A stretch of DNA of 64,000 nt from Gynurincola endophyticus. Its GTDB lineage: Bacteria; Bacteroidota; Bacteroidia; Chitinophagales; Chitinophagaceae. The stretch's first letter is position 1. Every line of letters begins with the position of its first letter. This document shows positions 1 through 19,122 of the stretch, piece after piece. The notes beneath the pieces were generated by a model. The model searched no databases, was not told the origin of the DNA, and worked only from the letters and a program-made list of their open reading frames with translations. The position numbers and the translations under genes are program-made. The DNA lies in contig NZ_RCWL01000005.1 of NCBI RefSeq assembly GCF_003991195.1, positions 197,078-261,077 on the forward strand, read 5' to 3'.

Positions 1-9
1 GGCCAGCCT

Positions 10-2691
10 TTGAGCAATTCAGATTTTGAGTTCTCTATGGCTGATACCAATAGTGGCAGTATTACTTTCACCGAGGCAGGTGTGGGTAACAATCTTGCAC
101 TTACGGAAGAAGAATTGCTCACAAACCTCAACAAAGTTCAGACGGAAAATGAGCTAAGAGAAGACGAAATATCACCTGCCATTGAAAAGCTTTGGTACAA
201 TGAAGACGCATCCGTAAAAGGCGTTCTGGAAGGTAAAACGGTAGTAACCGAGTTTCCCAACTACTCCGTAGAAATGGAAACCGGAACAGGCAAAACCTAT
301 GTGTATCTCCGTTCTGTTTACGAACTCAACAAGGTGTATGGCTTTAAGAAGTTTGTAATTGTAGTTCCTTCCGTGGCTATCCGTGAAGGAGTTATCAAAT
401 CCCTCCAAATCACCTTCGATCACTTTCAGGAAATCTACGAAAATCAACCTGCGGATTACAAGGTCTATGATTCAGGCCGTTTGTCAGACTTGGGCAATTT
501 TGCCAAAAGCAACGCCATACAAATTTTAGTAATCAATATTGATTCCTTCACCAAAGATGCCAACGTCATCAATCAGGTAAGAGAATCAGGCATAAAGCCC
601 ATAGAGTACATTCAGAAATCCAATCCGATTGTGATTATAGACGAGCCGCAGAATATGGAAACGGATATTCGAAAGCGAGCTATTGCCAATCTAAACCCCC
701 TATTTACACTGAGGTATTCTGCTACACACAAAAACCTTTACAACCTGGTCTATAAGCTTGACCCGGTGAAGGCGTATGATTTAGGCTTGGTAAAGCAAAT
801 TGAGGTTGATTCCGTTATAGCCCGAAACGATAGTTCAGGAGCCTTTATTAGTGTAGATGGTTTCCGTATGGCTAAGAAATCAGTAACTGCCAAGGTTTCA
901 ATATTTGTCAATGAAAAAACAGGTGTACAGAAGAAACAAGTTTCCGCAAATGTTGGAGACGACCTTTATAAGCTTTCTAAAAATTGGGACATATACAAGG
1001 ACGGCTATGTAATCAATGAGATAGATGCCGACAATCAGTTCATTGAATTTTCAAGTGGTCAAATTGTCTATCAGGGTCAAGCCGTAGGGGGTCTTACCGA
1101 CCAGATACTTAGGGAAATGGTAGATGCCACGGTAGAGAACCACTTCAAGAAGGAGAAAGAGTTGCAGGGCAAAGGAATCAAGGTCTTATCAATCTTTTTT
1201 ATCGACCGTGTGGCAAACTACCGTGAGTATGATGATAGCGGAAACACCGTACAGGGGAAGTTTGCCGAATGGTTTGAAGAAAGCTATACCAAATGGCAAA
1301 GTATGCCTGCTTACAGGGGTTTAATGAGCTTCAAAGCTAAAGACGTGCATGATGGATATTTCAGCCAGGATAAAGCAGGTAAATACAAAGACACCAAAGA
1401 AACTCGAACTACCAAAGCTGATGATGATACCTTCAACCTAATCATGCGAGATAAGGAAAGGCTATTGGATGAAAAAGTGCCTCTCCGATTCATTTTCAGT
1501 CACTCCGCATTGCGTGAAGGTTGGGACAATCCCAATGTATTCCAAATCTGTACGCTTAACGAAACCAAGTCGGATATAAAGAAACGACAGGAAATCGGAA
1601 GAGGTCTCCGCTTATGCGTTGACCAAACCGGAGCAAGAAACCTTGACCGTGCTATCAATAGGCTTACTGTCATCGCCAATGAAGCCTATGAATCATTCTC
1701 TAAAGCCTTACAAAAGGAAATAGAGGAAGATTGTGGCGTGAAGTTCGAAGGCCGTATCAAAAATGCAAGAGCAAGAACAAGCGTAAAACTCAAAGACAAA
1801 TGGATGGAGGATGCGCTATTCCTTGAGCTTTGGGAGAAAATAAGAGCTAAAACAGAATATAAAGTTGATTATAGCACCGAAGAGCTAATTGCAAATTGTG
1901 TGGCTGCATTGCAAGCAATGCCCCCTATCGAACGTCCTGTAATCTACCGTGAAAAGAATGTAGCAAAATTCGTTAGGGATGCCAAAGGCAAGCTGATTGA
2001 ATTAGGCGGAGAGCAGAAAGGCTCAAAGGAGAAAATGGTAAAGGACACCAATTATGAAATCCCTGATTTCATTGCTTATATCCAGTCTAAAACAGAGCTT
2101 ACCCGAGATACCATTACCCAAATCGTATTGAACTCAAACCGATTGGGCGAAATCTTTAACAACCCTCAGTTATTCATGGATAGCGTGGTACGCATCATCA
2201 AACATGAATTTGACCGAATCAAGATCAATGGCATCCAATATGAAAAGATTGCCGGACAGGTCTATGAAATGAAGTTGTTTGAATCCGCAGAAATTGAGCA
2301 GTATTTAGAAAACCTGATAGAGGTTAAGAAACAAGCCAAAACGCTTTACAACTATGTGGCCATTGATTCACTCAGTTCACCGGAACGCAGGTTTGCCGAA
2401 GATTGCGAAAACAGGGATGATATACTTTTCTATGTAAAGCTTCCAAGAACATTTGTGGTCAAAACTCCAATTGGTCCCTACAATCCTGATTGGGCATTGA
2501 TTAAGAAAGAGGACGGTGAAGAAACCAAAATCTACTTTGTAGCTGAAACCAAAGACCCTAAAGCAGCAAAAGACCGCACCTTATTAAGAGATAGCGAGCG
2601 ATTGAAAATAGCATGTGCAGAAAAGCATTTTGAAGTAATAGATCATGTGAATTACCGTGTAGTTGGCTCAGTGAGTGATTTGAAAGTTTGA
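10..2691 (+). CDS. Type III restriction Res-like SF2 helicase fused to C-terminal PD-(D/E)xK nuclease (probably 5-prime partial; frame open to window edge)
   Basis: Walker A METGTGKTYV; motif II IIDEPQN; motif VI QEIGRGLRL; C-terminal PD-(D/E)xK YNPDWAL...VAETK; reading frame open upstream of position 10, listed start is TTG. Confidence 0.7.
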   Translation: MSNSDFEFSMADTNSGSITFTEAGVGNNLALTEEELLTNLNKVQTENELREDEISPAIEKLWYNEDASVKGVLEGKTVVTEFPNYSVEMETGTGKTYVYLRSVYELNKVYGFKKFVIVVPSVAIREGVIKSLQITFDHFQEIYENQPADYKVYDSGRLSDLGNFAKSNAIQILVINIDSFTKDANVINQVRESGIKPIEYIQKSNPIVIIDEPQNMETDIRKRAIANLNPLFTLRYSATHKNLYNLVYKLDPVKAYDLGLVKQIEVDSVIARNDSSGAFISVDGFRMAKKSVTAKVSIFVNEKTGVQKKQVSANVGDDLYKLSKNWDIYKDGYVINEIDADNQFIEFSSGQIVYQGQAVGGLTDQILREMVDATVENHFKKEKELQGKGIKVLSIFFIDRVANYREYDDSGNTVQGKFAEWFEESYTKWQSMPAYRGLMSFKAKDVHDGYFSQDKAGKYKDTKETRTTKADDDTFNLIMRDKERLLDEKVPLRFIFSHSALREGWDNPNVFQICTLNETKSDIKKRQEIGRGLRLCVDQTGARNLDRAINRLTVIANEAYESFSKALQKEIEEDCGVKFEGRIKNARARTSVKLKDKWMEDALFLELWEKIRAKTEYKVDYSTEELIANCVAALQAMPPIERPVIYREKNVAKFVRDAKGKLIELGGEQKGSKEKMVKDTNYEIPDFIAYIQSKTELTRDTITQIVLNSNRLGEIFNNPQLFMDSVVRIIKHEFDRIKINGIQYEKIAGQVYEMKLFESAEIEQYLENLIEVKKQAKTLYNYVAIDSLSSPERRFAEDCENRDDILFYVKLPRTFVVKTPIGPYNPDWALIKKEDGEETKIYFVAETKDPKAAKDRTLLRDSERLKIACAEKHFEVIDHVNYRVVGSVSDLKV

Positions 2692-5600
2692 AACAACCAG
2701 CATTGACCCGTTTTGATATGGCAACAGAGAAACAATTTTTAACCAGGCTACAGGAGATTAAGCAAAGAGACGTGGAAGTTTTGCTTAAAAAGGCGTACCG
2801 TGGTATTTGGGAAACAGCAATTAAGAAGTATTCCGACAGTGCCCACTTCGTTTATGAATTGCTGCAGAACGCAGATGATACAAAAGCCACTTGGGTTGAT
2901 TTTCGCCTTGAAGAAGACGGACTTTGGTTTAAGCACAATGGCTCTGTTCGCTTCTCCATATCAGACCCGGACAATGAAGATGAAGATTCAGAAACTGGCA
3001 ACCTTGGCCATATAAACGCCATTACTTCCATTGGCAATTCAACCAAGATTGATGAACAAAAAATCGGAAAGTTTGGAATAGGCTTCAAAGCGGTTTTTGC
3101 TTACAGCATGTCTCCGCACATTTATGATGATAATTTCAACTTCAAACTGGAAAACTACATTGTGCCCAATGAAATTGAATCCTTGAATGGCCAGAGGGCA
3201 GCAGGTGAAACAGTTTTCTACTTCCCTTTTAATCACATTTCAAAGTCGCCAGAGGATGCCTATACCGAGATTGAGGACAAATTAGATTCACTCTTTCAAC
3301 CTATTTTATTCCTTACCAATCTTCAAAAGATAACTTGGAAATCCAATGAGAAAGAAGGCATCTATTCAAAGCGAGCATTAAAAACAGAACAGTTCGACAA
3401 TATCCGAGCTGAGTTAATGGAGGTTGAAAGCGTAGAAAATGAAGTCAATAAAAAAGAATTGATATGGTTATTCTCTACTGGCGTTTCACACAAGCAGCTT
3501 AAATCCCACCACCGCATCTATGTGGGTTTCTTTGTTCTCGATCAAAAGGAACTGGAAACTGGATATACCTATGAAGCATTTTGCTTCTTTCCAACCAAAG
3601 AAGAAACCAAGTTAGGATTTGTTATTCAGGCCCCATTCCTTTTGACAGATAGTAGAGAGGGAATAAAAGCAGGTGAGCAATGGAATGTGGAAATCATGCA
3701 GCTTGCGGCAAAGCTTGCTGCCAATTCTTTACCGATACTCAAAACCATTGGTGAAAGGGATAAAACCTACCTACTCAACGACAGTATTTTAGAACTGATT
3801 CCATACAAGGAAAGTGATTTTTCAGACGTAGGTAGTAAAGCGAAAATTTCATTCAAACCCTTCTATACCGAAATCCTAAAGAAGTTTCAAGCCGACCAAT
3901 TACTGCCTGGCAGAAATGGGAAGTACTACAAAACTGCAAAGTCATATTGGGCATCAGATCCCGAGTTAGCAGAACTCTTTTCCGACCAACAAATCAGCAA
4001 GCTAATGGGCAACCCAGATTCAGGATTGGTGTTCGTAAGCAAGGGACAGAAGCAACTTAACCAAGCGAATAAGACCTTAGAAAGCTATATCAATTCAATC
4101 ATTAACGACACCTTAGACCCTAAAAAACTTCTGAGGAGAATTGATGCTTCTTTCATGGAAGCACAATCAGATGAATGGTTATTGAAATTCTATGCCTATT
4201 TGGGAGGTCGAAAATCTCTTTGGGACGATAAAGAGAAGCTTGCTCAAAAACGACCAATCCTGCTAAATCAAGACAGAAAGGCCGTTGTACCCTTCAATGA
4301 TGATTTAACAGCACCAAATATTTTTCTACCTTCTGAAAGGGCAACAAGCTACGATACCATTTACAAGCCATTTACAGAGGATGAAGAAGCCCTGGACTTC
4401 TTCAAGGGTTTGGGTATTGGTAAACCCGACTTACGAGCTGAAATCTTCAAGACCATAATTCCGCAATACAAGAATGGGTTTAACTATGATGATAAGGACA
4501 AAATCTTAGCCCACTTCGATTCTTTCTTATCCTACTATGATGCTTGCCCGGCTTCTCTCCAAAGTGACTATCTCGATAAGCTCCAAGAGACTTGTTTCAT
4601 AGCATCCCGAAAAGCCAGTGACCCTGATACAATTTACTTTTGCTTCCCTGAGTCCGTTTACATTCCAAGTGAAAAGCTCAACAAATACTTTGCTAACGCA
4701 AAGGAGGTATATATTTTGGATGAAGATTACTATTTGGATTTTATCCATAGTCCTCGCAAAAGCTCGTTCTATTCATTTCTTTCGGCCTTAGGTTGCAGCA
4801 ATCAACCCCGTTTGATAGATAGGGAATTAGAATCCAACTACGAGAACAAGGAAAGATTTGGTCTTGAAGAAATTGAAGTATCACAAACCTATGTCTCTAA
4901 TCAAACTATTACAGATACCATTCTGGAAGGAATAGAGGAAGCAGTATCAAACATCAATCCCGAACTATCAGCCCTGATTTGGGAATACATGTTATTCCAT
5001 GTACATGGTAAGTCGTCTTACTCGCTCGAATCAAGTATCATGGGCAACTTTCGATACGTCCCCAAATGGAACCAATATCCAAAGTCCCAAAAGTTTGAAT
5101 CCACACTATCATCTATTCTCAAAAATGATAAATGGCTATATGATACAGAGGGCAATTTAAAATCAGCATCAGAAATTCAAAGAGAAGACCTAAACGAAAT
5201 CTACACTTCACAGGATTTTGACATTTCTGCATTCCTTGAATTTTTAGGAATTGAAAGCCCTGAAGATGAATTAGACCTCTCCGAGGAACAACGAGCAGCT
5301 TACCTGCTTGGCAAAAAACTACAAGAGGAAGGAATCACTGAAGAAGAATTAGCAGAGGCATTGAGCATGATAAAGGCTAAAAAGAAGTCCGCAGGTGCTC
5401 AGGGCAATCCCAATACTGATGAAGAAGAAGACTTCATGGATGATGCCATTGAAGACACCTTAGACCGCCTTAAAAAGGGAATCAAAAAGAAGCGAAAGGC
5501 CAGAGCTGAAAATCAAGATGAAGAAACTCAAAAAGAAGAGCAGGAATCTCCTGAATCAATGGCAGATCAGGATGAATACACAAAACCTTCTGTTGACCTT

Positions 5601-7535
5601 CAAAAGAAGATTGACAAGCTAAAGGAACAGACAGAAGCTCAAATTGAAGACCTTACCCGAATTGAGAAACTGAACGAGATTGTTGATGAATCTGAAATGT
5701 ATTCCTATGCTTGGTTCAAAGCTTTGCTTGAACTGGAATACCTGAGTAGTTCAGAATCCAACACTCAAGGAAAAGAAATATCAATCCAATTCACTAAAGC
5801 AGAAAAAGAACCGGGTACAGAAAGGACATTGATTCTCAAGCATCCGAACAGATATATCCCTCAATCCATTGAGGATATTGGAGACCTGCAAATTCGCTTG
5901 TATCATGGTGAAGAATCCAAGACCGTAACCGTGGAGGTTGTGAGTGTTAAAGAATATACCCTTCGGGCAAAGCTGAAAAAGTCTGCCGACATTTCAGAGA
6001 TTGACCTATCTAAGGTAAACCGAATAGTCATTGACATAAAGAATCCTGTTTTCATTCTTGAAGAACTTAGAAAAGCCTTCAATCAACTTGGCTTAGAGGA
6101 TGATTATAATCTACAGCAAAACCTTCCAGAGGATATTCGATTCATATTTGGCCCTCCCGGTACAGGTAAAACAACCTATCTCGCAACCAATGAGATTATA
6201 CCTCTTATGCAGCAGGAAGAAAACCTCAAAGTGCTAGTACTTACACCAACCAATAAATCAGCAGACGTTCTTACAAAGCGTATTATTGAAAAAATGGGTG
6301 ATGATGAAACCTATCACCATTGGCTTCTCCGCTTTGGAAATACAAGTGATGAATCACTGGAAAATAGCTCGGTTGTAATTGATAAAGCGTTCGACATTAG
6401 AACCAAGCCCAAGAATACCACAATAACCACAATTGCGAGATTTGCTTACGACTATTTCCAACCCGAAATCCATGATGAACGCCTGCACCTGAAATTTCTT
6501 GAATGGGACTACATTATCATTGATGAAGCTTCAATGGTGAACTTGGCCAGTATAGCTTACGTCCTTTATCAAAAGCCAGATGCAAAATTTGTAATAGCAG
6601 GAGATCCTTTCCAGATTCAACCAATTACACTTATTGACCATTGGAAGGATATGAATATCTACAGCATGGTCAATCTCGACAGATTCGTAGAGCCAACAAC
6701 TGTTCCCCATGAATTTGAAATAGTTAACCTACGCAAGCAATATAGGGCAGTTCCCACCATTGGAAATGTTTTCAGTCACTTCACTTACAATGGCATTCTC
6801 GAACACCATAGAACAAGTACAGAGCAAAAGCCATTGACCATATCCGGCTTTGATTTCAAGGACATTAACATTATCAAATTTCCAGTAGCAAAGTTTGAAA
6901 GCATTTACAAGCCAAATACGCTTAACAAATCAAACTATCAGGTCTATTCAGCTTTGTTCACGGTTGAGTTCGCCCAGTCACTTGCTTTTCAGATTCAATC
7001 AAGCCACAAAGACAAATTCAGAATTGGAATCATTTGTCCTTACAAGGCTCAAGCTACTCTAATTGAAAAGCTCCTTGCTCAACAATTTGAAGACACTGAT
7101 AAGGTAGAAATCCTTATCGGGACTATTCACGGCTTCCAAGGTGATGAATGTGATATTATCATTTCGATTTTTAACCCGCCATACTCGATAAGCAAACACC
7201 CGGGTATGTTCCTCAATAAGCAGAACATACTCAATGTATCCATTAGTCGGGCAAGAGATTATTTATTCATCATAATGCCAGACGACAACACGCAGGATAT
7301 TGAGAACCTATATAAAATCAAGAAAATAGAAAGATTGATTTATCGCCATGCTCCTAACAATCACTCAGTTTACGAATCCACGGAGATTGAGGAAATTATG
7401 TTTGGCAGCGATACCTACATTTATGACAACTCCTTCGCTACTTCTCACCAAACTGTAAATGTGTATTCAAAACCAGAGCGGAAGTATGAAGTCCGTTGTG
7501 AAGAGGTAGCTGTTGACGTTCAAATTAAACAATGA
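2688..7535 (+). CDS. Large multidomain protein: N-terminal sacsin/GHKL-type (HATPase_c-like) ATPase, acidic/basic coiled-coil linker, C-terminal Upf1/DNA2-like SF1B helicase (AAA_11/AAA_12-like)
   Basis: N-box ELLQNADD and G2-box GKFGIGFKAVF near N-terminus; SF1B motifs FIFGPPGTGKTT (I), IIIDEASMV (II), VIAGDPFQIQP (III), LRKQYRAVP (IV), IGIICPYKAQ (V), GTIHGFQGDECDIII (VI); start overlaps stop of upstream gene by 4 bp (TTG at 2688; alternative ATG at 2718). Confidence 0.7.
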   Translation: MKQPALTRFDMATEKQFLTRLQEIKQRDVEVLLKKAYRGIWETAIKKYSDSAHFVYELLQNADDTKATWVDFRLEEDGLWFKHNGSVRFSISDPDNEDEDSETGNLGHINAITSIGNSTKIDEQKIGKFGIGFKAVFAYSMSPHIYDDNFNFKLENYIVPNEIESLNGQRAAGETVFYFPFNHISKSPEDAYTEIEDKLDSLFQPILFLTNLQKITWKSNEKEGIYSKRALKTEQFDNIRAELMEVESVENEVNKKELIWLFSTGVSHKQLKSHHRIYVGFFVLDQKELETGYTYEAFCFFPTKEETKLGFVIQAPFLLTDSREGIKAGEQWNVEIMQLAAKLAANSLPILKTIGERDKTYLLNDSILELIPYKESDFSDVGSKAKISFKPFYTEILKKFQADQLLPGRNGKYYKTAKSYWASDPELAELFSDQQISKLMGNPDSGLVFVSKGQKQLNQANKTLESYINSIINDTLDPKKLLRRIDASFMEAQSDEWLLKFYAYLGGRKSLWDDKEKLAQKRPILLNQDRKAVVPFNDDLTAPNIFLPSERATSYDTIYKPFTEDEEALDFFKGLGIGKPDLRAEIFKTIIPQYKNGFNYDDKDKILAHFDSFLSYYDACPASLQSDYLDKLQETCFIASRKASDPDTIYFCFPESVYIPSEKLNKYFANAKEVYILDEDYYLDFIHSPRKSSFYSFLSALGCSNQPRLIDRELESNYENKERFGLEEIEVSQTYVSNQTITDTILEGIEEAVSNINPELSALIWEYMLFHVHGKSSYSLESSIMGNFRYVPKWNQYPKSQKFESTLSSILKNDKWLYDTEGNLKSASEIQREDLNEIYTSQDFDISAFLEFLGIESPEDELDLSEEQRAAYLLGKKLQEEGITEEELAEALSMIKAKKKSAGAQGNPNTDEEEDFMDDAIEDTLDRLKKGIKKKRKARAENQDEETQKEEQESPESMADQDEYTKPSVDLQKKIDKLKEQTEAQIEDLTRIEKLNEIVDESEMYSYAWFKALLELEYLSSSESNTQGKEISIQFTKAEKEPGTERTLILKHPNRYIPQSIEDIGDLQIRLYHGEESKTVTVEVVSVKEYTLRAKLKKSADISEIDLSKVNRIVIDIKNPVFILEELRKAFNQLGLEDDYNLQQNLPEDIRFIFGPPGTGKTTYLATNEIIPLMQQEENLKVLVLTPTNKSADVLTKRIIEKMGDDETYHHWLLRFGNTSDESLENSSVVIDKAFDIRTKPKNTTITTIARFAYDYFQPEIHDERLHLKFLEWDYIIIDEASMVNLASIAYVLYQKPDAKFVIAGDPFQIQPITLIDHWKDMNIYSMVNLDRFVEPTTVPHEFEIVNLRKQYRAVPTIGNVFSHFTYNGILEHHRTSTEQKPLTISGFDFKDINIIKFPVAKFESIYKPNTLNKSNYQVYSALFTVEFAQSLAFQIQSSHKDKFRIGIICPYKAQATLIEKLLAQQFEDTDKVEILIGTIHGFQGDECDIIISIFNPPYSISKHPGMFLNKQNILNVSISRARDYLFIIMPDDNTQDIENLYKIKKIERLIYRHAPNNHSVYESTEIEEIMFGSDTYIYDNSFATSHQTVNVYSKPERKYEVRCEEVAVDVQIKQ

Positions 7536-7595
7536 TTAAACACCCGTTAAAAGAAAAAATGAAAACTTAATATCGAATTAAAACCCTCGTTCATA

Positions 7596-9695
7596 ATGGC
7601 AAAGCACTGTTTCAACATACTAACATTCAATCATCCGAGCGAATCGCTCACCTTCTATTTTTCCGAGAAGGAGCAAGAAGGAACTACACGAATTTATCAT
7701 TCATTGGTTCCTGATGAGGTCATTGATAAGTATGCAGAACAGGAACATTACTACACTTCATTTTGCCAAGAAAAAGAAGGGTTTATTCCGGTTACTAAGC
7801 CAACTACACCAACCTATGAGAAAATCACTAACGAAGAAGGAATTGAAAAATCAGTTCAGGTTTCCAATTCCGCATTGTCTTCATCCATTCTCAAACGTTA
7901 CTACAATTCACTAATTCATAACCATTTCAAGTCAAAGGGCTGTTTGGTCAAACCTAACTTTGTCAGCGATACAGAAGTTTGGTTGCCAAGCGATACACAA
8001 GACAAGGAAGGGATATACAAAACCTTTGACCGTTTTTCATTGAAGGTGCAGTTCAGAACAGTTTCCAATAGTCTTGAATTATTGGTCACATTTGAAGGCA
8101 AGTCAAAGATTTTTAAAACTCCTGTATCAGAACTTTTTGAAGAAGTACCTGTAAGGGCATTCAATTGGGTGGTCTATGAAAAAGGACTACACCGCTTTGA
8201 TGAATTGCCAGATGATGGGAAAAGAAATTACGATAAGGTTTATCCTGTTTGGAATTTTGAAATAAGGGATGCTTTGCACCAGGAGACAGAAGCCCCGGAC
8301 AAGACGAACAAATACAGGAAGTTCAAAACGGCCATTGATAAATTTTACAGGGAGCAGCTTAATGCAGCCGAGTTCAAGGCCATCATTCCGCTTTCATCTA
8401 AAGGGTTTATTACAGTTGATGAAGTCCGCATCGGTTCAATTGAAAAGTCCAGCAACAAACTCGTATTTGGAAATCAAAAGCTGCACCATGTACCGTATTA
8501 TGGCATTACAGAAAATGGTCCTTTCGAGTTAAGCCCATCATCAAAGATTCATTTCTTTTTTATTCTCCATGAAGATGATAGAGAAGTAGCTGCCAAGATT
8601 CACAACTACTTTAATGGCAAACTCAACGGCTTTAGAGGGCTATCAAAATTCATTCATACACCGTATCATCCAGATAAAGAACTCGCAATCTATTTCAAGG
8701 ATAGGGATAACCCTTGGCCGGAACTGTATGAGCAAATCAATGACAAGGACTTTGATACCGACATTCAGCACATAGCTATTTACATTTCCCCAATCAGCAA
8801 GAATGTTCCAGTCAAATCTCAGAGGTTGATTTACTACAAGCTGAAAGAGCTACTATTGAAAAAAGGAGTTTCCTCTCAGGTGATAGATCCTGACAAAGTG
8901 ATTACCAACGACAAGTATCATTTCAGCTTGCCAAACATCGCAATAGCCATTCTCGCAAAGCTCAATGGCACTCCGTGGAGGTTGGACACAAAGCTGAAGA
9001 ATGAATTGATTGTTGGAGTTGGAGCATTCAAGCACACAGAAGTTGACATCCAATATATCGGCAGTGCTTTCAGTTTCTCCAATACAGGGAAATTCAACCG
9101 ATTTGAATGCTTTCAGAAAGACCAAACAAAAGAGTTGGCAGGTTCAATTCTAAGAGCAGTTAAAGACTATGTGAATGTAAATACAGGAATCAGAAGGCTT
9201 GTAATTCACTTCTACAAAGACATGAGTAGAGAGGAAGTAGAACCGATTGAGAACGGCCTGAAAGAATTGGACTTGAACATTCCGGTCTTTATCGTCACCA
9301 TCAACAAAACGGAATCATCCGATATTGTTGCCTTTGATTTGGACTGGAAAGATTTGATGCCCGTAAGTGGCACTTTTATCAAATTAGGCTACAACAGATT
9401 TCTACTTTTCAACAATACCAGGTATTCAGCATCAGAGTTCAATTTCAATGATGGATTTTCATTTCCAGTAAAGCTCAAGATAAATTGCTCCAATCCTGAA
9501 TTGGTTGATGATTACAAAACAGTAAAGGAGCTTATCGATCAAGTATATCAGTTCAGTCGCATGTACTGGAAGTCAGTAAGACAACAAAATTTGCCCGTTA
9601 CAATCAAGTACCCTGAAATGGTTGCAGAAATGCTCCCTTACTTTGAAGGCAACGAGATTCCTGATTACGGTAAAGACAATCTTTGGTTCTTATGA
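7596..9695 (+). CDS. Prokaryotic Argonaute-like protein, long form with catalytically inactive PIWI (long-B-like)
   Basis: MID motif LIYYKLKELLLKKGVSSQVI...NIAIAILAKLNGTPWRL (Y-x3-K...Q...K-LNG, the Argonaute 5-prime-phosphate pocket / KLGG motif); position of first catalytic Asp reads IVGVGAF instead of GxDV; ~380 aa N-terminal region compatible with N-L1-PAZ-L2. Confidence 0.65.
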   Translation: MAKHCFNILTFNHPSESLTFYFSEKEQEGTTRIYHSLVPDEVIDKYAEQEHYYTSFCQEKEGFIPVTKPTTPTYEKITNEEGIEKSVQVSNSALSSSILKRYYNSLIHNHFKSKGCLVKPNFVSDTEVWLPSDTQDKEGIYKTFDRFSLKVQFRTVSNSLELLVTFEGKSKIFKTPVSELFEEVPVRAFNWVVYEKGLHRFDELPDDGKRNYDKVYPVWNFEIRDALHQETEAPDKTNKYRKFKTAIDKFYREQLNAAEFKAIIPLSSKGFITVDEVRIGSIEKSSNKLVFGNQKLHHVPYYGITENGPFELSPSSKIHFFFILHEDDREVAAKIHNYFNGKLNGFRGLSKFIHTPYHPDKELAIYFKDRDNPWPELYEQINDKDFDTDIQHIAIYISPISKNVPVKSQRLIYYKLKELLLKKGVSSQVIDPDKVITNDKYHFSLPNIAIAILAKLNGTPWRLDTKLKNELIVGVGAFKHTEVDIQYIGSAFSFSNTGKFNRFECFQKDQTKELAGSILRAVKDYVNVNTGIRRLVIHFYKDMSREEVEPIENGLKELDLNIPVFIVTINKTESSDIVAFDLDWKDLMPVSGTFIKLGYNRFLLFNNTRYSASEFNFNDGFSFPVKLKINCSNPELVDDYKTVKELIDQVYQFSRMYWKSVRQQNLPVTIKYPEMVAEMLPYFEGNEIPDYGKDNLWFL

Positions 9696-9944
9696 TGATT
9701 ACGGAACACCCACCGCACATTTGCCAACCCGCACCAATGTGCTTCCAGTAGGTTCATTCCGGTCGTTCGTTCCTCACTCTCTTCATTCACCCACTTCCAG
9801 CACCGCACAGCAAGAGTAGCCCGTTATTCCATTCCGCTGCGCTACATTCCATACCGTGCCACACTTGCTTTTCCCAACGCACCCCCCAACGCAGGTAAAG
9901 CGGTGTTCGTCAGTCGTTCCGTTTTGTTCCGCAAAAACATATCT

Positions 9945-9981
9945 GCAAGGGTAAAATGCACTCCCTTCGGTCGCCCTTGCA
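9945..9981. repeat. Hairpin element, 8-bp stem TGCAAGGG/CCCTTGCA with 21-nt loop containing CCCTTCGG
   Basis: Read directly: tgcaagggtaaaatgcactcccttcggtcgcccttgca. Confidence 0.6.
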
Positions 9982-10927
9982 CATACCGTTCACTTACCAG
10001 TTCGTTTGCGCTCCAGTAGGTGCTCACTCACTGCCGTTCACTTGTTTTGCTTCACACACTCTCTCCTTCCTCACTCGCAGCTATTTCATCCCCCCAAACC
10101 CCTTCTATGGTGTTCGCTAAACTCACAATATTTTTTATTGGGGGTCTGCCGCTGCTTATTGTTTTTGCTCGCCTGCGGGTCGCTGCGGGCTGATCGGGCT
10201 GTCATGTTTTTTGCTTTCCCCTATGTGCTTTCAGTCGCTTCGTTTCAGTCATTCGTTCCTCATTCCTTCAACTCAGCCACTTTCAGCACCGCTCACAAGC
10301 GTAGCTCTTTCACTACACTACACGAGCCAACGTACCGTCATTCCGCAATCTGCCTGCAATCCTTCTCCAATGGGTTTGTACTCCAATCAAAAAATACAAA
10401 CCCAACCAATGCTATTGCAGGCAGTTATTGCTCCATTCCCTTCCAATAATCGTTTCGTTTCGTTCAGTCGCTACCCTTGCCTTTGCCGACCCTGATGCAA
10501 AAAAACACGCCAGCCCTGCCGTAAACGGTAGGCGTCTGCCGCCCTCATTCTTCGGGCTTTTGCAGCCACCACCCTTGCTCCGCTCGCAGGCGGCTCGCAG
10601 AAATGGCTTCGCCTTGGTTTACCTGCGTTTCCCGCTTTTTTCCCACCGCACAATTGAGTACATTCGTTAACAATGAAAGAACTATTTGAAGACTTTTATT
10701 ATTTAATATTCCCCAGGGATGAAGAAGGTGTTTACAAGACAGACACCGACAGTCCTTTATGGGTTAAAATTCTGGTTGTTGCTTTCATCGGGTTTATGTG
10801 TTTCATGCTTGCAATAGCATCTTAATAGAAACAGATTCCAGTTTTCTAATCCTTCAATTCGACCTTAACTCGGGTCAATAAATAACTCAAACATAAAGCA
10901 AAGTTACAGGCGTGCGGATGCGAGAGC

Positions 10928-11003
10928 TGCAAGGGTTCGCTTCGCCTGTTTGGGAAAAAAATCTCCACCCTACGGGTAGTATTTTTTTCCCACAGCCCTT
11001 GCA
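10928..11003. repeat. Composite nested-hairpin element, copy 1 (outer TGCAAGGG/CCCTTGCA stem; inner GGGAAAAAAA...TTTTTTTCCC stem; central CCCTACGGG mini-hairpin)
   Basis: tgcaagggttcgcttcgcctgtttgggaaaaaaatctccaccctacgggtagtatttttttcccacagcccttgca. Confidence 0.6.
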
Positions 11004-11291
11004 TCAATCGCACCGTCCTGTAGTGTGAGGGTATTATGTTTAAGTTATTATTCAGAGTCCGTTTCGGCAGCCGGTGGTTGTTGGCGGGCGTTCGCACCTC
11101 AGGTCGTCCGTTCCATGCAGGCGTTCAGCGTTTCGGTATCACTGATTATACGCTGCGTGTCTTTTGGTTCGAGTTGTGCCTTTCAGAGCTTCCTTTTTAG
11201 GGGGCTCTTTTTTTTACTCGTACAGGGAAAATTTTAAAAAGAGAATAGCAAAGATAGGCGGGTTCGCACATGCCCAACGCACTTTCGGACA

Positions 11292-11364
11292 GTCAAGGTC
11301 AAGCCCTACGGGTTTTGAAAAAAATCTCTACCCGAAGGGTAGTATTTTTTCCAAAAACCTTGAC
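11292..11364. repeat. Composite nested-hairpin element, copy 2 (outer GTCAAGG/CCTTGAC; inner TTTTGAAAAAAA...TTTTTTCCAAAA; central CTACCC-GAA-GGGTAG)
   Basis: gtcaaggtcaagccctacgggttttgaaaaaaatctctacccgaagggtagtattttttccaaaaaccttgac; same orientation as copy 1, ~365 bp downstream. Confidence 0.6.
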
Positions 11365-11430
11365 AGCCGAGCCTCACCCGCCTGAAAGACAGCTTTCTCT
11401 TTTCTTTTTTTCCCTTTTTTCTTTTCTCTT

Positions 11431-11916
11431 TTGAAAAAATATATGCGAAGCGCAGCGAGCAAAACTTTAATGGCTCACTGTATGAAATCGTTTCGTATCA
11501 AAACACACCGACTGGAAAGCAGCTACCAACAGCCGCACTTCTTTATCCTGAATAAAGGATTGAACAGCGGGAAACCGCTCAACCAAGCTTGCCCGAATTG
11601 CTTTGTTTGCCTCACCGACAACCAAGAGGACAGGGAATTTCTCTTTTGGCTATGCTTTGGATTGTGGAGGTCAAAATCATTTCACTATCTCCTGAAAGGC
11701 TCAGTGATTCCATTTGTGACTATTGATGAAATCCGAAAGCTGATTCGGGAAAGCTCCACCAAAGCAAGCTGCAAAGACCAGGCATTTCAGAAGGCAATTC
11801 AAGCCCTTCAACTACTCGATACCAACGAGCAAAAAATCAAGGTCACACTAAAGATGATTGATACTGCCAGACAAGCCATATTTTATGACTTGATGAAAGA
11901 AACAGGAGCAGGATAG
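11431..11916 (+). CDS. Hypothetical protein
   Basis: 161-aa ORF preceded by polypyrimidine tract; no recognisable motifs; true start uncertain. Confidence 0.3.
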   Translation: MKKYMRSAASKTLMAHCMKSFRIKTHRLESSYQQPHFFILNKGLNSGKPLNQACPNCFVCLTDNQEDREFLFWLCFGLWRSKSFHYLLKGSVIPFVTIDEIRKLIRESSTKASCKDQAFQKAIQALQLLDTNEQKIKVTLKMIDTARQAIFYDLMKETGAG

Positions 11917-12094
11917 AATCCTGCACTGCCAAAAAAACAGGGCAACAAAAGCAAAATAAAGCACACTACCGCAACAGCACCCAAGAGAGAACTACCGCTT
12001 AATTCTTGAAGTAATTTAGTTGGCGAAGGGCAAATCCATGGTAAGTCCGTGTCAAGTCCAAGCAAATGTTTAACTCCTTAAAAATCGTAAAGAG

Positions 12095-12736
12095 ATGGGA
12101 AAAATTAATCAAGGTATTCTCGGTGGCGTATCAGGCCAAGTAGGGAATGTAATCGGTGGAACTTGGAAGGGCATCGATTACCTGCGCATCAAACCTTCCA
12201 GTGTAGCGAACCCAAGAACTGAAGGTCAGGTTGACCAGCGTTCTAAATTTTCAACTGTCCTAAGGTTCTTGCAACCAATGACAGACTTCCTGAGAGTCGG
12301 TTTCAAGTTGTATGCAAACCGTATGACCCAATTCAATGCGGCCATGTCTTACAACCTGAATAATGCAGTTACCGGAGCTTATCCAAACTTCATGATTGAC
12401 TATGCAAGTGCATTGGTCACTCGTGGTAACTTGACAGGTGCGGCCAACGGTGCAGCCACTTCTCCAAGTGCTGGAAACGTAGAAGCAACCTGGACAGACA
12501 ACTCAGGAAGCGGAAGTGCTCAAGCAACAGACAAAGCTCTGATTGCTCTTCTGAACACTACCCGAGGGGAAGCAGTGTTCACCACTGCGGGACCAGCAAG
12601 GTCTGCCGGATCAGCGACCATTCCAGTGCCTTCTGAGTACTCAGGAGAAGACGTTGAAGTCTTCTTAGGTTTTGTATCAGAAGACGGAATTAAAGTCGCC
12701 AAAAGCGTTTATTTAGGCTCTGTAACAGTTGCGTAA
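12095..12736 (+). CDS. Hypothetical protein (resembles a Bacteroidota-restricted conserved family with MGKINQGILGG...NPRTEGQ N-terminus; Gly/Ser/Ala-rich C-terminal half)
   Basis: 213-aa ORF with good coding appearance, followed by an intrinsic terminator. Confidence 0.5.
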   Translation: MGKINQGILGGVSGQVGNVIGGTWKGIDYLRIKPSSVANPRTEGQVDQRSKFSTVLRFLQPMTDFLRVGFKLYANRMTQFNAAMSYNLNNAVTGAYPNFMIDYASALVTRGNLTGAANGAATSPSAGNVEATWTDNSGSGSAQATDKALIALLNTTRGEAVFTTAGPARSAGSATIPVPSEYSGEDVEVFLGFVSEDGIKVAKSVYLGSVTVA

Positions 12737-12757
12737 AGCGATTGGTGTTTTCCTTGA

Positions 12758-12788
12758 AAACCGCTTCCTTTGTGAAGCGGTTTTTTTA
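12758..12788 (+). terminator. Rho-independent terminator
   Basis: aaccgcttc-ctttgtg-gaagcggtt followed by TTTTTTT. Confidence 0.7.
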
Positions 12789-13188
12789 TGCCCATACCCC
12801 TCGATTTTTCCTTTATTATCGCTTAGTTTGACATTCCTAAGCGTTTTTTGTTGCTAATGCGTTTCTACACTTTTAGCAATACACTGAATTACAGTAAGTT
12901 AAAAGCAATTAAAATATTTTGTATCGGGAAGTAAAATCAAACTTCTTAGAAAAGTCGAATAATATCACAAAAAGAGCTAAAATAATTTATTAGCTATTAT
13001 ACCACTTTTTCGTTTACATAAATCGTTAGGTTAATAAATTGCCTATAATGATTTTTCTAATGTTTAGTGTTGTTAATGCAATTATGTATATAAAATGTAA
13101 AAAAAAGTACAGAGTTAAAATAGATGTAAGAGATGATAAAATGTACTATTGGCAATAGTAACAATCAAATAAATTATTACCTCAATAA

Positions 13189-13827
13189 TTGAAATATAAT
13201 AAAGTGAGCGCAGTTTTTATTATAGGTAAAAGTATTGAAAATGGACAACCATTGCATGTTCGAGATGCGAGTAATGGTTTGTCTTGTAATTGCATTTGTT
13301 ATGAATGTGAACAAAAGTTAGAAGCAGTACAGGGAAAACGGGATTGGTATTTTCGTCACTATAATAAATCTGCTTGCAAGGGAAATAATGAAACAGCCTT
13401 GCACAACTATGCAAAATTATTACTTTGCCAAAACACATTCATTCAATCAAAAAAAAAGATAATTAATTACACAAATCCATCTTTAGAAACAGTTACTGAT
13501 AAATACCGCTCTGATGTGAGTGTTAAATACAATGATTCAATACTGCATTTTGAAATTGTAGTCAGAAATAAATTAACCTCAGAAAAGATTAATTATTATA
13601 AAAAGAATAAGATAAACTGCATCAAGATTGATTTAAGTAGTCGTATTTTATTGTCTGCTGAACCTAAAGATATTAGAGATGCGGTAATAGAAGATAAAAA
13701 AAATAAAGACTTCATTCAATGGAATGAAGATGAGAATTGTAATTGGCTGATTGCATGTGGATTGTTTATTGCATCATTATTTGTTTTAAATGGATTGTTA
13801 CGTGGCCGACATAAAATTAAAAAATAG
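13189..13827 (+). CDS. Hypothetical protein, possibly CoiA-like nuclease family (Cys cluster CNCICYEC, KRDWYFRHY, ETALHNYAK); very AT-rich
   Basis: ORF with TTG start listed; motif resemblance only; C-terminal hydrophobic segment. Confidence 0.35.
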   Translation: MKYNKVSAVFIIGKSIENGQPLHVRDASNGLSCNCICYECEQKLEAVQGKRDWYFRHYNKSACKGNNETALHNYAKLLLCQNTFIQSKKKIINYTNPSLETVTDKYRSDVSVKYNDSILHFEIVVRNKLTSEKINYYKKNKINCIKIDLSSRILLSAEPKDIRDAVIEDKKNKDFIQWNEDENCNWLIACGLFIASLFVLNGLLRGRHKIKK

Positions 13828-13864
13828 AATATATGTTTGTACTCAAATGATCTAAGCCCATGAC

Positions 13865-14497
13865 TTACATCAACCTGTTCTCCGTCGCTATTCTCACCAG
13901 CTCTATCATGTTTCTGGCCTTAAATTTTTGTAGCAGGTTGCGGCGATGAGTTTCTACCGTAATCAGACTGATAAATAGTTTTTCAGCAATTTGGGCAGAC
14001 GTATTTCCTTCGGCAATAGATTGCAATATTTGTTTTTCACGCTTGGTGATTTTGGGTAGTTCATATGAATAAACCGGTTGTGTCAACATGATTTCCTGAA
14101 CTTCTTTGCTTAAAACTACTTTCCCATTTAAAGCTTCTTTAATACAGCTGATAATTTCCTGCGAATCCGCATTTTTTAGAATATAGCCACTCGCTCCATT
14201 TTGTAATAACTGAAAAATGATGCTTCTTTCAGCCTGGTTACTAACACCGATCACTATCGTTTTGGGAGATAGCTTTTTAATAGATTTACAGAAATCTAAC
14301 CCACTGCCATCACTTAAAACGATATCCAGCAGTACAAGGTCTACTTCATTGCCTGTAATGAAATCTAAAAATGCAGTGCCCTTAGTAAAAGAATAAATCT
14401 GATAATTTTCCTGCGATTGGATTAAAGATTTTAACCCTTCCAGTACCATAGGATGGTCGTCAACGATCGCTAAGGTTATTTTACTTTCTTTAGACAT
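13865..14497 (-). CDS. Response regulator, NarL/FixJ (LuxR-type HTH) family
   Basis: REC domain (IVDDHPMV...LVLLDIVLSDGSG) plus LuxR HTH (LTKREKQILQSIAEGNTSAQIAEKLFISLITVETHRRNL). Confidence 0.9.
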   Translation of the reverse strand: MSKESKITLAIVDDHPMVLEGLKSLIQSQENYQIYSFTKGTAFLDFITGNEVDLVLLDIVLSDGSGLDFCKSIKKLSPKTIVIGVSNQAERSIIFQLLQNGASGYILKNADSQEIISCIKEALNGKVVLSKEVQEIMLTQPVYSYELPKITKREKQILQSIAEGNTSAQIAEKLFISLITVETHRRNLLQKFKARNMIELVRIATENRLM

Positions 14498-16623: not shown

Positions 16624-17088
16624 ATGAGAAAACTGAATCTGAAAATCACAATGTTATGCGTAACAGCATTATTTGCTGTAAGCTCTATGGTAACCGGTTG
16701 CAGCAAGAAAAAAGATGATGAACCTACAGGACAGGGAGCGATTGAAGCCGCGGTGGGTACTTACAAAGGAAAAATCAGTGTGTATGAACAAATTCCCGGT
16801 GATAACAGATGGGAATTCTTTGATGCTATTATTGTGGTGAGCAAAGAAGGAAATGACAAACTTAAAATCGCAGCCAAATCAGGCGAAGCTTATTCAGGTA
16901 TTACCTCTAAAACCTTTACCGTAGAAGCCGGCGCATTTTTCGGACAAGCTCCGGTAGATGTTATTTCTAAAATTGGTTCAGTTGAAGGAATGTTTGCTTA
17001 TTACGGTTCTAATAAAACGATTACTGTGGTTACCCAGAAACAGGGTGCGAATGAAATTCATTATTCATTTGACGGAACCAAACAATAG
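16624..17088 (+). CDS. Lipoprotein, hypothetical
   Basis: Lipobox MVTGCSKKKDD. Confidence 0.6.
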   Translation: MRKLNLKITMLCVTALFAVSSMVTGCSKKKDDEPTGQGAIEAAVGTYKGKISVYEQIPGDNRWEFFDAIIVVSKEGNDKLKIAAKSGEAYSGITSKTFTVEAGAFFGQAPVDVISKIGSVEGMFAYYGSNKTITVVTQKQGANEIHYSFDGTKQ

Positions 17089-17127
17089 GTGCCGGTAATT
17101 TATCCGTTTATCATGTAAATATCATGA

Positions 17128-17168
17128 AGCCCTTTTCAACATTTTAATGCTGAAAAGGGCTTTTCTTT
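17128..17168 (+). terminator. Rho-independent terminator
   Basis: agcccttttc-N14-gaaaagggct + T-run. Confidence 0.7.
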
Positions 17169-17182
17169 AATATATTTGACAT

Positions 17183-18118
17183 ATGAAAAGTATTAAAAAT
17201 ATCTTGTTCTTACTAGCGATACTGGTGGTGGGATGTAGTAAATCCGGAAGTAATGATTCTCCTGATGATCAGAATGTAATTAAAGATACTTTTAAGGAAG
17301 GAGTGATTGAAATGGGAATCTATAGCGGAGGTGCAGATTTGGGAGTGGTCATTGATCAGGTGAACTGGTCTGCAGATAATGTGCGTGAACAGGTTGAAAA
17401 TGTTTTGAACAATTTATCTGATGAAGAAAATCCGATGAAAATTATTCAAAAGGTCAGTGAGAATAATCCATGGCTGGCTTTTTCTTTAATTCTAAATATG
17501 ACTAATTGTGATTATTACATTAAAGACCAGACTGTGTTGGGTAAAGCGAGAGGAATGGGGTGGGTAATGGATAATTATCATAACCGATCTGCTGATAAAG
17601 GAAGTGTATATATTGAAACACTGGTTCAGACAGATGAGATCAGTGATGCCGATAAAAGAATTTTTGCAACCTACACACCTTCTGAAGATTTAGGAAGTCA
17701 ATTGAATGCCATTGACTTTAGTAATTTTAAAAGAGAGCAGCAGCCAAAGAAAGAAAATGTTTTGAATTATTTATGTGATGTAACTACCTATACTGCTGTT
17801 AATAATGTTCCGGGAAGTCAGTTGAACCTTTATAAAATTGTTGTATATACATCATCTTTGTTTGATAAAACGATCAATTTTACACATCCGTATTATCTTC
17901 CTGAAGACGGAGGTATCTTACGGTTAGATATTTATTTTGAAAATATTCCCGAGCCAACTCTGGTAATGGCTCCAAAATCAATCATCCCAAGAGTTGTTAC
18001 TTCTGGTGAGTTAACTACCAGAACAGCCACCCCATCTACTACTATTAATGACCCGGCCTGGGGCTTTAAAGCATTGGGTCTTTTAATGAGTGGATTCTCC
18101 GTGTTAAACGAAGAATAA
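17183..18118 (+). CDS. Lipoprotein, divergent fifth member of the paralog family arrayed at 20.7-24.5 kb
   Basis: Lipobox LVVGCSKSG; shared motif HPYYLPEDGGILRLDIYFE vs HPFYFEENGGILKIEV in the tandem paralogs. Confidence 0.6.
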   Translation: MKSIKNILFLLAILVVGCSKSGSNDSPDDQNVIKDTFKEGVIEMGIYSGGADLGVVIDQVNWSADNVREQVENVLNNLSDEENPMKIIQKVSENNPWLAFSLILNMTNCDYYIKDQTVLGKARGMGWVMDNYHNRSADKGSVYIETLVQTDEISDADKRIFATYTPSEDLGSQLNAIDFSNFKREQQPKKENVLNYLCDVTTYTAVNNVPGSQLNLYKIVVYTSSLFDKTINFTHPYYLPEDGGILRLDIYFENIPEPTLVMAPKSIIPRVVTSGELTTRTATPSTTINDPAWGFKALGLLMSGFSVLNEE

Positions 18119-18157
18119 ACTGTCAAAACAAATAATCGTTGTAAATTATACAGAATA

Positions 18158-18188
18158 GAGTCTGGCTATTTTAGTCAGACTTTTTTAT
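18158..18188 (+). terminator. Rho-independent terminator
   Basis: agtctgg-ctattttag-tcagact + TTTTTT. Confidence 0.6.
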
Positions 18189-18280
18189 TCCTAAGTAATT
18201 GATAAATAGATGTTTATTGATTAGGTTGGAATATTGCCGGGCAAGTATTATATTGTATATTCACCATAGGTAGAAAGTTC

Positions 18281-18523
18281 ATGTTTAAGTATTGGCTTAT
18301 TTCTCTGATGCTGTGTTGTTCATTGGTATCTTTGTATGCTGAGAAACCTGAGGCTAGCCTATTGGTTATTCATGATCAGAAAGAATCTGTTGTTTATATC
18401 ACAAAAACCGGAGAGAAGTATCATAAAGAAAGTTGCCGGCATCTCTCTAAGAGTTCCATTAAAATATCACGTAAGGAGGCTATCAAAAACGGATATGCCG
18501 CTTGCAAGATCTGTAAACCCTAG
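18281..18523 (+). CDS. Small secreted protein with C-terminal YH-x3-C...C-x2-C metal-binding-like motif
   Basis: Signal peptide MFKYWLISLMLCCSLVSLYA; KYHKESCRHL...YAACKICKP. Confidence 0.4.
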   Translation: MFKYWLISLMLCCSLVSLYAEKPEASLLVIHDQKESVVYITKTGEKYHKESCRHLSKSSIKISRKEAIKNGYAACKICKP

Positions 18524-18570
18524 TGCCACAAAAAGACTGTAGTCATTTATTCAACTACTTTAAACAAATT

Positions 18571-19122
18571 TGTATGGTACAATTTTCATCGGATAATCCG
18601 CTTTCCACTGAGCTTCAATCAGCTTTTTCCCGTTTACTAAAATACCATAATCATACTGAGTTTGTAACAGGTATCATGACTCAAATTTCCGAAAAAGGAT
18701 ACATTACCCGTCAGGATTTAAATGCAATTCAAAATCATTTTCCGGATGTCACTTTGTTGAAGTACAAGAATGAACTATTAGATCTGGTGATTGATTATAT
18801 CATATTAGCATTAAATGATCACTTGTTAACAGATGAAGAAATCGAAAATGTGTTATACCTAAAACGTCTGTTCGAAATAAGAGAGGGAGATTTTTATAGG
18901 GAAAAGTATATGGCGATCGGTCTGGTTTTAGATAAACAATTTCAATTGATTTATAGAAATGATTATAAAGTAAGTCTGGAAGAAGCTCTACGCAAAGTTC
19001 ATCTACAGGATATATTTGATTTGAGTTATGATCAGTTGTTGGAATTCAAAGAGAAAGAAATCCGCAATGCGCTCAATAACGGTGCAGATTTAAGAGATTT
19101 AGATACAGGCAAAATTCCATAA
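18571..19122 (+). CDS. Hypothetical cytoplasmic protein
   Basis: ORF 18523..19122; likely ATG start at ~18571 (MVQFSSDNP). Confidence 0.4.
   Translation, partial: CMVQFSSDNPLSTELQSAFSRLLKYHNHTEFVTGIMTQISEKGYITRQDLNAIQNHFPDVTLLKYKNELLDLVIDYIILALNDHLLTDEEIENVLYLKRLFEIREGDFYREKYMAIGLVLDKQFQLIYRNDYKVSLEEALRKVHLQDIFDLSYDQLLEFKEKEIRNALNNGADLRDLDTGKIP

Follow-up and report, generated by a model that had tools for sequence, protein, structure and literature searches.

What does a protein do that joins a sacsin-like GHKL ATPase to an Upf1-like superfamily 1B (SF1B) helicase in one polypeptide, and does it act alone or with the products of the genes beside it? The question is raised by a gene on the + strand, at 2688..7535, of a stretch of 64,000 nucleotides from Gynurincola endophyticus (contig NZ_RCWL01000005.1), referred to here as the window. 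The gene follows that for the restriction subunit (Res) of a type III restriction-modification (R-M) system and is itself followed by a gene for a prokaryotic Argonaute (pAgo). We use the label BIG for the window gene together with its full-length homologues. An original prediction, made from the letters of the sequence, described the fusion as unusual and attached significance to the neighbouring pAgo. The fusion is real. Two things had been missed: by sequence homology, the N-terminal ~880 amino acids (aa) are a single module common to TmtA of the Tiamat defence system, and what is reproducibly linked to BIG in Bacteroidota is the type III R-M cassette upstream. BIG, as judged by homology, is a Tiamat-type module with an Upf1-type helicase as its putative effector.

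Domain anatomy and the Tiamat-type module

The first in-frame start of the open reading frame (ORF), TTG 2688, overlaps the stop of the Res gene and gives 1615 codons, the length originally quoted; aa positions in the text are counted from it. Homologues begin at ATG 2718, as indicated by their consensus and by the junction sequence, and this is therefore the probable start, giving a protein of 1605 aa. The NCBI gene model has 1610 aa. A G. endophyticus database entry that is 100% identical is named 'DEAD/DEAH box helicase', and names throughout the family are generic ('AAA domain' or 'DEAD/DEAH box helicase'). The gene has the following features.

2688..7535, + strand: BIG, whole gene, sacsin-like GHKL module plus Upf1-like helicase (uninterrupted ORF, from the translation)
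2799..3302, + strand: GHKL (Bergerat-fold) ATPase domain, sacsin class, aa ~38-205
2856-2879, + strand: N-box ELLQNADD of the GHKL domain, aa 57-64
2934-2942, + strand: HNG in place of DxGxG (GHKL motif II)
3066-3098, + strand: G2 box GKFGIGFKAVF of the GHKL domain, aa 127-137
3327..3677, + strand: beta-rich second domain, transducer-like (position of the GHKL transducer or Hsp90-middle domain), aa ~214-330
3639-3668, + strand: LLTDSREGIK motif, invariant, closing the transducer-like domain
3678..5357, + strand: conserved central region, aa ~331-890 (~560 aa)
5388..5570, + strand: disordered charged linker, aa ~901-961 (predicted local distance difference test, pLDDT, <50 at model residues 891-951)
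5598..6083, + strand: pair of long stalk helices with a beta-barrel (1B-like domain), aa ~971-1132
6114..7322, + strand: SF1B helicase core, RecA1/RecA2, aa ~1143-1545 (motifs Ia and IV are also present)
6150-6176, + strand: helicase motif I (GPPGTGKTT, aa 1155-1163)
6513-6536, + strand: helicase motif II (with DEAS, aa 1279-1282)
6600-6623, + strand: helicase motif III (GDPFQIQP, aa 1305-1312)
7122-7154, + strand: helicase motif V (TIHGFQGDECD, aa 1479-1489)
7233-7259, + strand: helicase motif VI (NVSISRARD, aa 1516-1524)
7323..7532, + strand: conserved C-terminal tail, a small beta element ending NSFATSHQTVNVYSKPERKYEVRCEEVAVDVQIKQ, aa ~1546-1615 (~70 aa)
7533-7535, + strand: BIG stop codon, TGA

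All of the motifs quoted in the original prediction are located in the translation, and its N-terminal match survives profile and fold searches. Against a cut-off of 32.8 bits, Pfam SACS (PF25794) scores 40.3, and against one of 50 bits NCBIfam NF047352 ('sacsin N-terminal ATP-binding-like') scores 69.6, so that the sacsin-type N-box and G2 box are accompanied by scores above curated family thresholds. As in sacsin SR1 and the two-domain GHKL proteins (MutL, MORC, GyrB), the Bergerat fold is followed by a transducer-like domain, whose closing LLTDSREGIK motif is a candidate for supplying a catalytic arginine. BIG differs from sacsin in being prokaryotic, in carrying a single copy of the module and in joining it to a helicase.

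For the C-terminal half, Pfam gives AAA_12 (89 bits) and AAA_11 (52 bits) on aa 1143-1529, where AAA_19 and AAA_30 also match, and the helicase part matches TIGR00376 (IGHMBP2 family). A profile of the BIG family compared with the PDB finds sacsin SR1 at E=1e-7 and SEN1 and UPF1 at ~1e-14; sequence searches of the PDB with BIG match UPF1, SEN1, SETX, IGHMBP2 and sacsin SR1. Two AlphaFold2 models were built on 116-sequence alignments, with pLDDT of 83 for aa 11-971 and 85 for aa 958-1615, and a predicted template modelling score of 0.80 for the C-terminal model. In the latter, helices 14-44 and 50-68 form the stalk and strands 74-160 the 1B barrel. Foldseek aligns 640-700 columns of this model, taking in both stalk helices and the barrel, to UPF1 (E=8e-26), IGHMBP2, Sen1/SETX, Dna2 and ZNFX1. 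Motifs I, Ia and II-VI are intact (the motif residues include IGIICPYKAQ, aa 1446-1455), and the stalk helices and 1B barrel are carried on RecA1, as expected of an Upf1-like enzyme. The eukaryotic UPF1, IGHMBP2, SEN1/SETX, Dna2 and ZNFX1 share the fold, stalk, 1B-type barrel and all helicase motifs, but at an identity of only 14-18%, and BIG has neither a cysteine/histidine-rich (CH) or zinc domain nor a Dna2-type nuclease and is fused to a GHKL domain.

These results revise the earlier description of the intervening part of the protein as ~700 aa with no assigned function and a coiled-coil linker. A central region of ~560 aa remains for which no known fold or Pfam family was recognised, and there is indeed a charged disordered linker (19 D/E and 10 K/R in 61 residues). 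However, a transducer-like domain can now be recognised, as can the stalk helices and 1B barrel, and the presence of these helices in the C-terminal model means that part of the supposed coiled coil is the Upf1-type stalk.

Across 116 sequences (35-96% identity) the N-box, the G2 box and helicase motifs I-VI are invariant, including N-box residues E57 and N61. The fraction of sequences carrying the majority residue is highest in the two ATPases (0.72-0.75), lower in the central region (0.55) and lowest in the linker (0.38). Both ATPase engines look active from their motifs, and family membership suggests that the helicase translocates 5'-3' on RNA or single-stranded DNA (ssDNA).

Two PADLOC profiles for TmtA match the N-terminal module, PDLC03972 (191 bits, aa 48-835) and PDLC03968 (147 bits, aa 14-921), and do so only over the first ~810-895 of their 1,302-1,486 positions. 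Tiamat has been described in a review as a single-gene system with a PD-(D/E)XK structure, whose mechanism is not known (10.1101/2024.10.26.620412); the preprint of Millman et al. does not mention it. Like Tiamat, BIG is one large gene with a place in defence islands, and the two are homologous and colinear over the N-terminal ~880 aa (GHKL, transducer-like and central regions), the central region being common to Tiamat-type proteins. The two differ at the C-terminus: TmtA has a NOV_C/DUF3883 PD-(D/E)XK nuclease, whereas BIG has ~700 aa comprising linker, stalk helices, 1B barrel, SF1B core and tail, and Pfam finds no NOV_C match in it. In spite of the homology of the module, the absence of the nuclease led us to reject membership of Tiamat itself.

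Three relatives of the module were taken from a tblastn search of plasmids, among them the full-length homologue on the Chryseobacterium plasmid pA2BH1. Another, a Sulfuricurvum plasmid protein whose gene lies between a NERD-domain gene and a Qat system, consists of SACS plus NOV_C (NOV_C 61.9 bits in Pfam; TmtA model 279 bits). BLASTP aligns it with BIG at 26% identity over 868 columns, colinearly from aa ~48 to ~887; beyond aa ~887 it has the nuclease where BIG has the linker and helicase. On the Methanomethylovorans hollandica plasmid pMETHO01 (L112:816-7297; L numbers are our labels for loci) the sacsin-like module is a separate protein of 1,113 aa without nuclease or helicase. Its gene starts 6 nt after that of a DrmD-like SNF2 helicase (PADLOC DrmD, 407 bits), and the pair looks like the same arrangement in split form, with an SF2 helicase. 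Since the module occurs with a nuclease in TmtA, with an Upf1 helicase in BIG and beside an SNF2 helicase in pMETHO01, it is a portable unit. A search with the N-terminal module alone gave 3,558 clusters at 50% identity; the best 150 all belong to the same family or are fragments of it, and thus reveal no other architectures.

The central region had been singled out for a search for a cryptic nuclease fold. This candidate was rejected, every search being negative: no nuclease was found by a PDB profile search or by Pfam at E<=10 in the central regions of three homologues, and none is suggested by the invariant alignment columns. In BIG as a whole no nuclease or toxin domain was detected.

The conserved C-terminal tail, detected in most full-length family members, has invariant N, Y, E, R, D and Q residues and forms beta strands in the AlphaFold2 model; it has no Pfam match. 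Many members, including Bacillota loci, continue for a further 100-540 aa (P0129, P0136, P0145, P0173, P0196 and L018-L037, of 1,680-2,150 aa). These extra tails are mutually unrelated and some have paired CxxC motifs (zinc-ribbon-like); inspection by eye, without a Pfam scan, revealed no obvious nuclease in them. At two loci BIG is split in two ORFs (L008:10001-14802, 841+722 aa; L062:2504-7374, 616+1093 aa), likely through frameshift, pseudogenisation or assembly error. The L008 copy is otherwise 95% identical to the window protein.

Distribution of the family and its proposed role

If unusual is taken to mean rare, the fusion is not unusual. When BIG was searched against 5.8 billion proteins, 2,545 clusters (90% identity) matched at E<=1e-5. 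Among the top 120, nearly all are ~1,600 aa long with the same Pfam set; the 120 are 44-100% identical to the query, and their sources are Bacteroidota, Bacillus, Paenibacillus, Desulfosporosinus, Clostridia and Methanimicrococcus. A scan of species-representative genomes found at least 509 relatives, and the best 78 loci were analysed by calling ORFs and clustering the neighbours. All 78 match BIG over most or all of its length and they are spread over Bacteroidota, Bacillota, Planctomycetota, Verrucomicrobiota, Proteobacteria, Spirochaetota and a methanogen.

Occurrence is sparse, and identity is ~45% between Bacteroidota, Bacillota and a methanogen, which together argue for horizontal spread and not for a housekeeping gene. 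Mobile copies are found directly. The Chryseobacterium plasmid pA2BH1 carries a full-length homologue (43% identical), and in Sphingobacterium multivorum (L124) a type III cassette with BIG lies in a conjugative element (TraG, ArdC; an integrative and conjugative element, ICE) beside a CBASS operon. The expectation of the original prediction that the homologues would not prove to be housekeeping genes is thus borne out by a patchy, mobile distribution in a defence context. The S. multivorum CBASS operon contains SMODS, E2-CBASS and S_4TM. In the same element the cassette, preceded by a helix-turn-helix (HTH) gene and accompanied by a transposase fragment, lies between duplicated ArdC (MPTase-PolyVal)/DUF4099 gene sets (3181-5874 and 17066-19011), and this duplication may mark how the cassette inserted.

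The genes next to BIG vary between loci and most are unique to one locus. The 114 immediate neighbours in the 78 loci include 12 matches to PDC-S68, seven type III Res and three pAgo, the rest being singletons. The PDC-S68 matches represent a ~1,200-aa RecD-like SF1 helicase which adjoins BIG at ~13 loci in several phyla (L019, L025, L028, L029, L030, L033, L037, L045, L047, L059, L064, L071, L077), usually directly upstream on the same strand. One example (L071:14772-18410) matches the PADLOC candidate PDC-S68 end to end with 1,204 bits, and the C-terminal ~110 aa of this type of protein look nuclease-like (…SKSEVIIANQL…PDF…WEHLG…). BIG and PDC-S68 may form a two-gene system.

Alleles of BIG can be mosaic. 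When the proteins encoded by L081:5123-9937 and window 2718-7532 are compared, their ends are ~100% identical, but identity drops to 68% in the central region and 40% in the linker, even though the neighbouring Res and pAgo genes are 95% identical to those of the window. This pattern points to recombination or diversifying selection with its focus on the putative sensor region.

On balance, and with moderate confidence, we favour the explanation that BIG acts autonomously and spreads horizontally, as a protein of defence or against mobile elements, and that its ATP-gated GHKL clamp and variable sensor control a tethered helicase. By analogy with MutL, MORC, Hsp90 and GyrB, the GHKL and transducer-like domains would act as an ATP-driven dimerising switch. 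The variable ~560-aa central region, which we propose as the sensor or specificity region, would recognise an invader cue (a nucleic-acid structure or a protein), and this recognition would gate the helicase tethered through the ~60-aa disordered charged linker. The helicase might then load on invader ssDNA or RNA and unwind or strip replication or transcription intermediates. As BIG has no nuclease of its own, any degradation would fall to other enzymes, for example the upstream type III Res or, in other phyla, the RecD-like PDC-S68 protein; this would fit the frequent adjacency to such helicase-nucleases.

Several points weigh against this explanation. Among characterised defence systems an effector that is only a helicase is uncommon, and the way in which it would stop an invader is speculative. 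GHKL motif II is HNG and not DxGxG, as it is in sacsin, and ATP binding by sacsin itself is debated (PMC9880540). The defence-island context is a statistical argument from raw neighbour counts. Adjacency to PDC-S68 (~18%) and the recurrent type III R-M linkage leave room for obligate partners in some lineages. In the literature searched, we found no paper on a fusion of a sacsin-type GHKL domain with an Upf1-type helicase.

Among known systems, Mokosh is closest in its helicase, which belongs to the same COG1112/Upf1-like family. The PADLOC MkoA and MkoC models match BIG at aa 1266-1530 with 76-103 bits, and the tblastn search of plasmids also found MkoA-type genes annotated as serine/threonine kinase and with a phospholipase D (PLD) neighbour. 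Defence by Mokosh depends on its Upf1-like helicase, a precedent for the role proposed for that of BIG, and the definition of the system (type I or II) includes a PLD-family nuclease that is either fused to the helicase or encoded beside it (10.1101/2022.05.11.491447). BIG, in contrast, has no kinase domain and no PLD nuclease, fused or adjacent, its neighbours being type III Res and pAgo, and its N-terminal module is entirely unlike that of Mokosh. Membership of Mokosh was rejected on these grounds.

BIG is a large, conserved candidate defence family which, to judge from homology, carries a putative helicase effector on a Tiamat-type module. Being large, highly conserved and generically annotated, it is a reasonable candidate for experimental defence screens. 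Comparison of the nuclease, Upf1-helicase and SNF2-helicase versions of the module would separate sensing from effector roles. [quoted passage not shown] If true, this ancestry would be a hint that these eukaryotic proteins arose from immunity.

The type III cassette and other possible roles

The gene immediately upstream of BIG is the following.

1..2691, + strand: restriction subunit (Res) of the type III system, with helicase plus endonuclease domain; truncated at the window edge (PADLOC, Pfam)

It is identified by PADLOC REase_III (901 bits) and by Pfam ResIII and RE_endonuc. An IMG/VR contig (L114), with 96.7% nucleotide identity to window 1-7532, contains the full Res of 920 aa; in the genome studied, ~24 N-terminal codons, a variable small ORF (X) and the modification gene (Mod) lie upstream of the window. 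The order Mod, X, Res, BIG on one strand is found at no fewer than 12 loci in Bacteroidota: seven genome loci (L002, L003, L005, L007, L008, L009, L011), L081, L114, L124, L129 and the plasmid pA2BH1.

This recurrence, which extends to pA2BH1 with a BIG only 43% identical, is an argument that BIG is an accessory of the R-M system and is not autonomous in this lineage. It could, for example, be a second motor that processes DNA for Res, or could extend restriction to substrates that escape Res. The stop of Res lies 26 nt before ATG 2718 (or overlaps the TTG start) with no predicted terminator between the two genes, at least nine further Res relatives and BIG relatives share a longest contig of equal size, and the boundary of the cassette in L114 falls exactly after BIG. 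We nevertheless think this explanation unlikely. Mod-X-Res occurs without BIG on six of the eight long contigs with a Res 74-90% identical that were looked up (a selection biased to contigs outside the BIG list), and the R-M system therefore does not need BIG. Conversely, ~70 of the 78 BIG loci, in other phyla, have no adjacent type III R-M. In Bacteroidota a mobile type III cassette thus ends with BIG in some cases and lacks it in others; the co-occurrence with Res that the original prediction had asked about is recurrent in this phylum, but it appears to be facultative.

The X gene is a further peculiarity of these cassettes. In type III R-M systems mod and res are normally adjacent, so that a gene between them is unusual. 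X is variable, encoding 237-306 aa or a 145-aa protein, or being replaced by two ~140-aa genes (L114:6448-7212; L007:6071-6787; L002:6364-6777; L113:4868-5302; also L124, L125 and L127-L132). The 145-aa protein has a weak REase_II-like match; most X genes match nothing in Pfam or PADLOC. Mod often has an HTH gene in front of it.

It is also conceivable, and we consider it distinctly improbable, that BIG plays no part in defence and that its nucleic-acid work is of the housekeeping kind (replication, transfer, repair or RNA surveillance), done for mobile elements or for the cell, as with the Upf1-family helicases of eukaryotes. The enzymes nearest to it among solved structures (UPF1, IGHMBP2, SEN1/SETX, Dna2) have housekeeping functions, some copies are carried on the backbones of ICEs and plasmids, and the protein lacks any detectable nuclease or toxin domain. 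However, the distribution described above is at odds with phylogeny, the variable neighbourhoods share as recurrent members only defence genes or candidates, the N-terminal module is common to an experimentally named defence family (TmtA), and the mosaic divergence is concentrated in the central region.

The neighbouring Argonaute and its mobile-element scaffold

The gene downstream of BIG is the following.

7596..9695, + strand: pAgo, 699 aa, long-B-like, predicted catalytically inactive (PADLOC PDLC02385, 964 bits)

Its closest solved relatives are AfAgo, RsAgo and EcAgo. That BIG could be the effector or helper of this pAgo, which would sense an invader through its guide and recruit the ATPase-helicase, was examined from both BIG loci and pAgo loci; co-occurrence data largely refute it, and we regard it as very improbable. 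The idea is a natural one, since the two genes lie 60 nt apart on the same strand with no predicted terminator between them, pAgos of the inactive long-B type usually depend on a partner effector, in L002, L003 and L005 BIG is also followed by a pAgo, a divergent one (37-39% identical), and enrichment of helicases in pAgo operons has been reported (10.1101/366930). However, a pAgo follows BIG in only four of 79 BIG loci. On the other side, 32 metagenomic loci were taken with pAgos 49-99% identical to that of the window; among the ~17 with at least 5 kb upstream (pAgos 64-99% identical), L081 alone has Res and BIG. In L114 the homology to the window breaks off no more than 3 nt from the BIG stop codon, and the genes that follow are unrelated and on the opposite strand. 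In L129, Res (96%) and BIG are succeeded by DUF6943, the same context without a pAgo. The L114 breakpoint and the L129 arrangement indicate that the adjacency is a co-location in a hotspot. The R-M, BIG and pAgo modules assort independently. With BIG being neither rare nor linked to pAgo, the surprise attached to the locus by the original prediction is reduced.

BIG resembles the long-B pAgo systems with effectors (BPAN, BPAS, BPAM; SLFN-pAgo) in adjoining an inactive long-B-like pAgo on the same strand, but differs from them in lacking conserved co-occurrence. In SLFN-pAgo, ATP binding by a GHKL domain drives oligomerisation of the defence pAgo (10.64898/2026.05.29.728809), a precedent for the switch proposed in BIG. 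This GHKL domain belongs to another Pfam family, PF13749, and kinship to that of BIG was rejected for this reason.

The pAgo is a constant member of a conserved mobile-element scaffold in Bacteroidota (L079-L110), made up of genes that are BT4734-like and DUF3987/PriCT primase-like, an HTH gene, the pAgo itself, DUF6943 and DUF6266. Cargo is inserted just upstream of the pAgo and may be type I R-M, BsuBI/PstI R-M, RhuM, type III R-M with BIG, or nothing. For example, in L091, L092 and L096 the pAgo directly follows the HTH gene and has no candidate effector beside it. For pAgo biology this is a caution, as adjacency here reflects a cargo hotspot of a mobile element and not a dedicated partnership. 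Many scaffold loci add, after the pAgo, a Fur-like gene with resistance-nodulation-division (RND)/cation efflux genes. RND transporters have been reported as enriched near long-B pAgos (10.1101/366930), which the scaffold with its efflux genes may explain.

No tRNA or Rfam match was found in window 1-14000. Downstream of the pAgo, where a stretch at 10-12 kb is richer in G+C, there is a direct repeat of 76 nt (78% identity) at 9734-9809 and 10220-10295. A 34-nt bidirectional terminator-like hairpin (GAAAAAAATCTC-CACCC…GGGTAG-TATTTTTT) is present in two copies, at 10954-10987 and 11317-11350.

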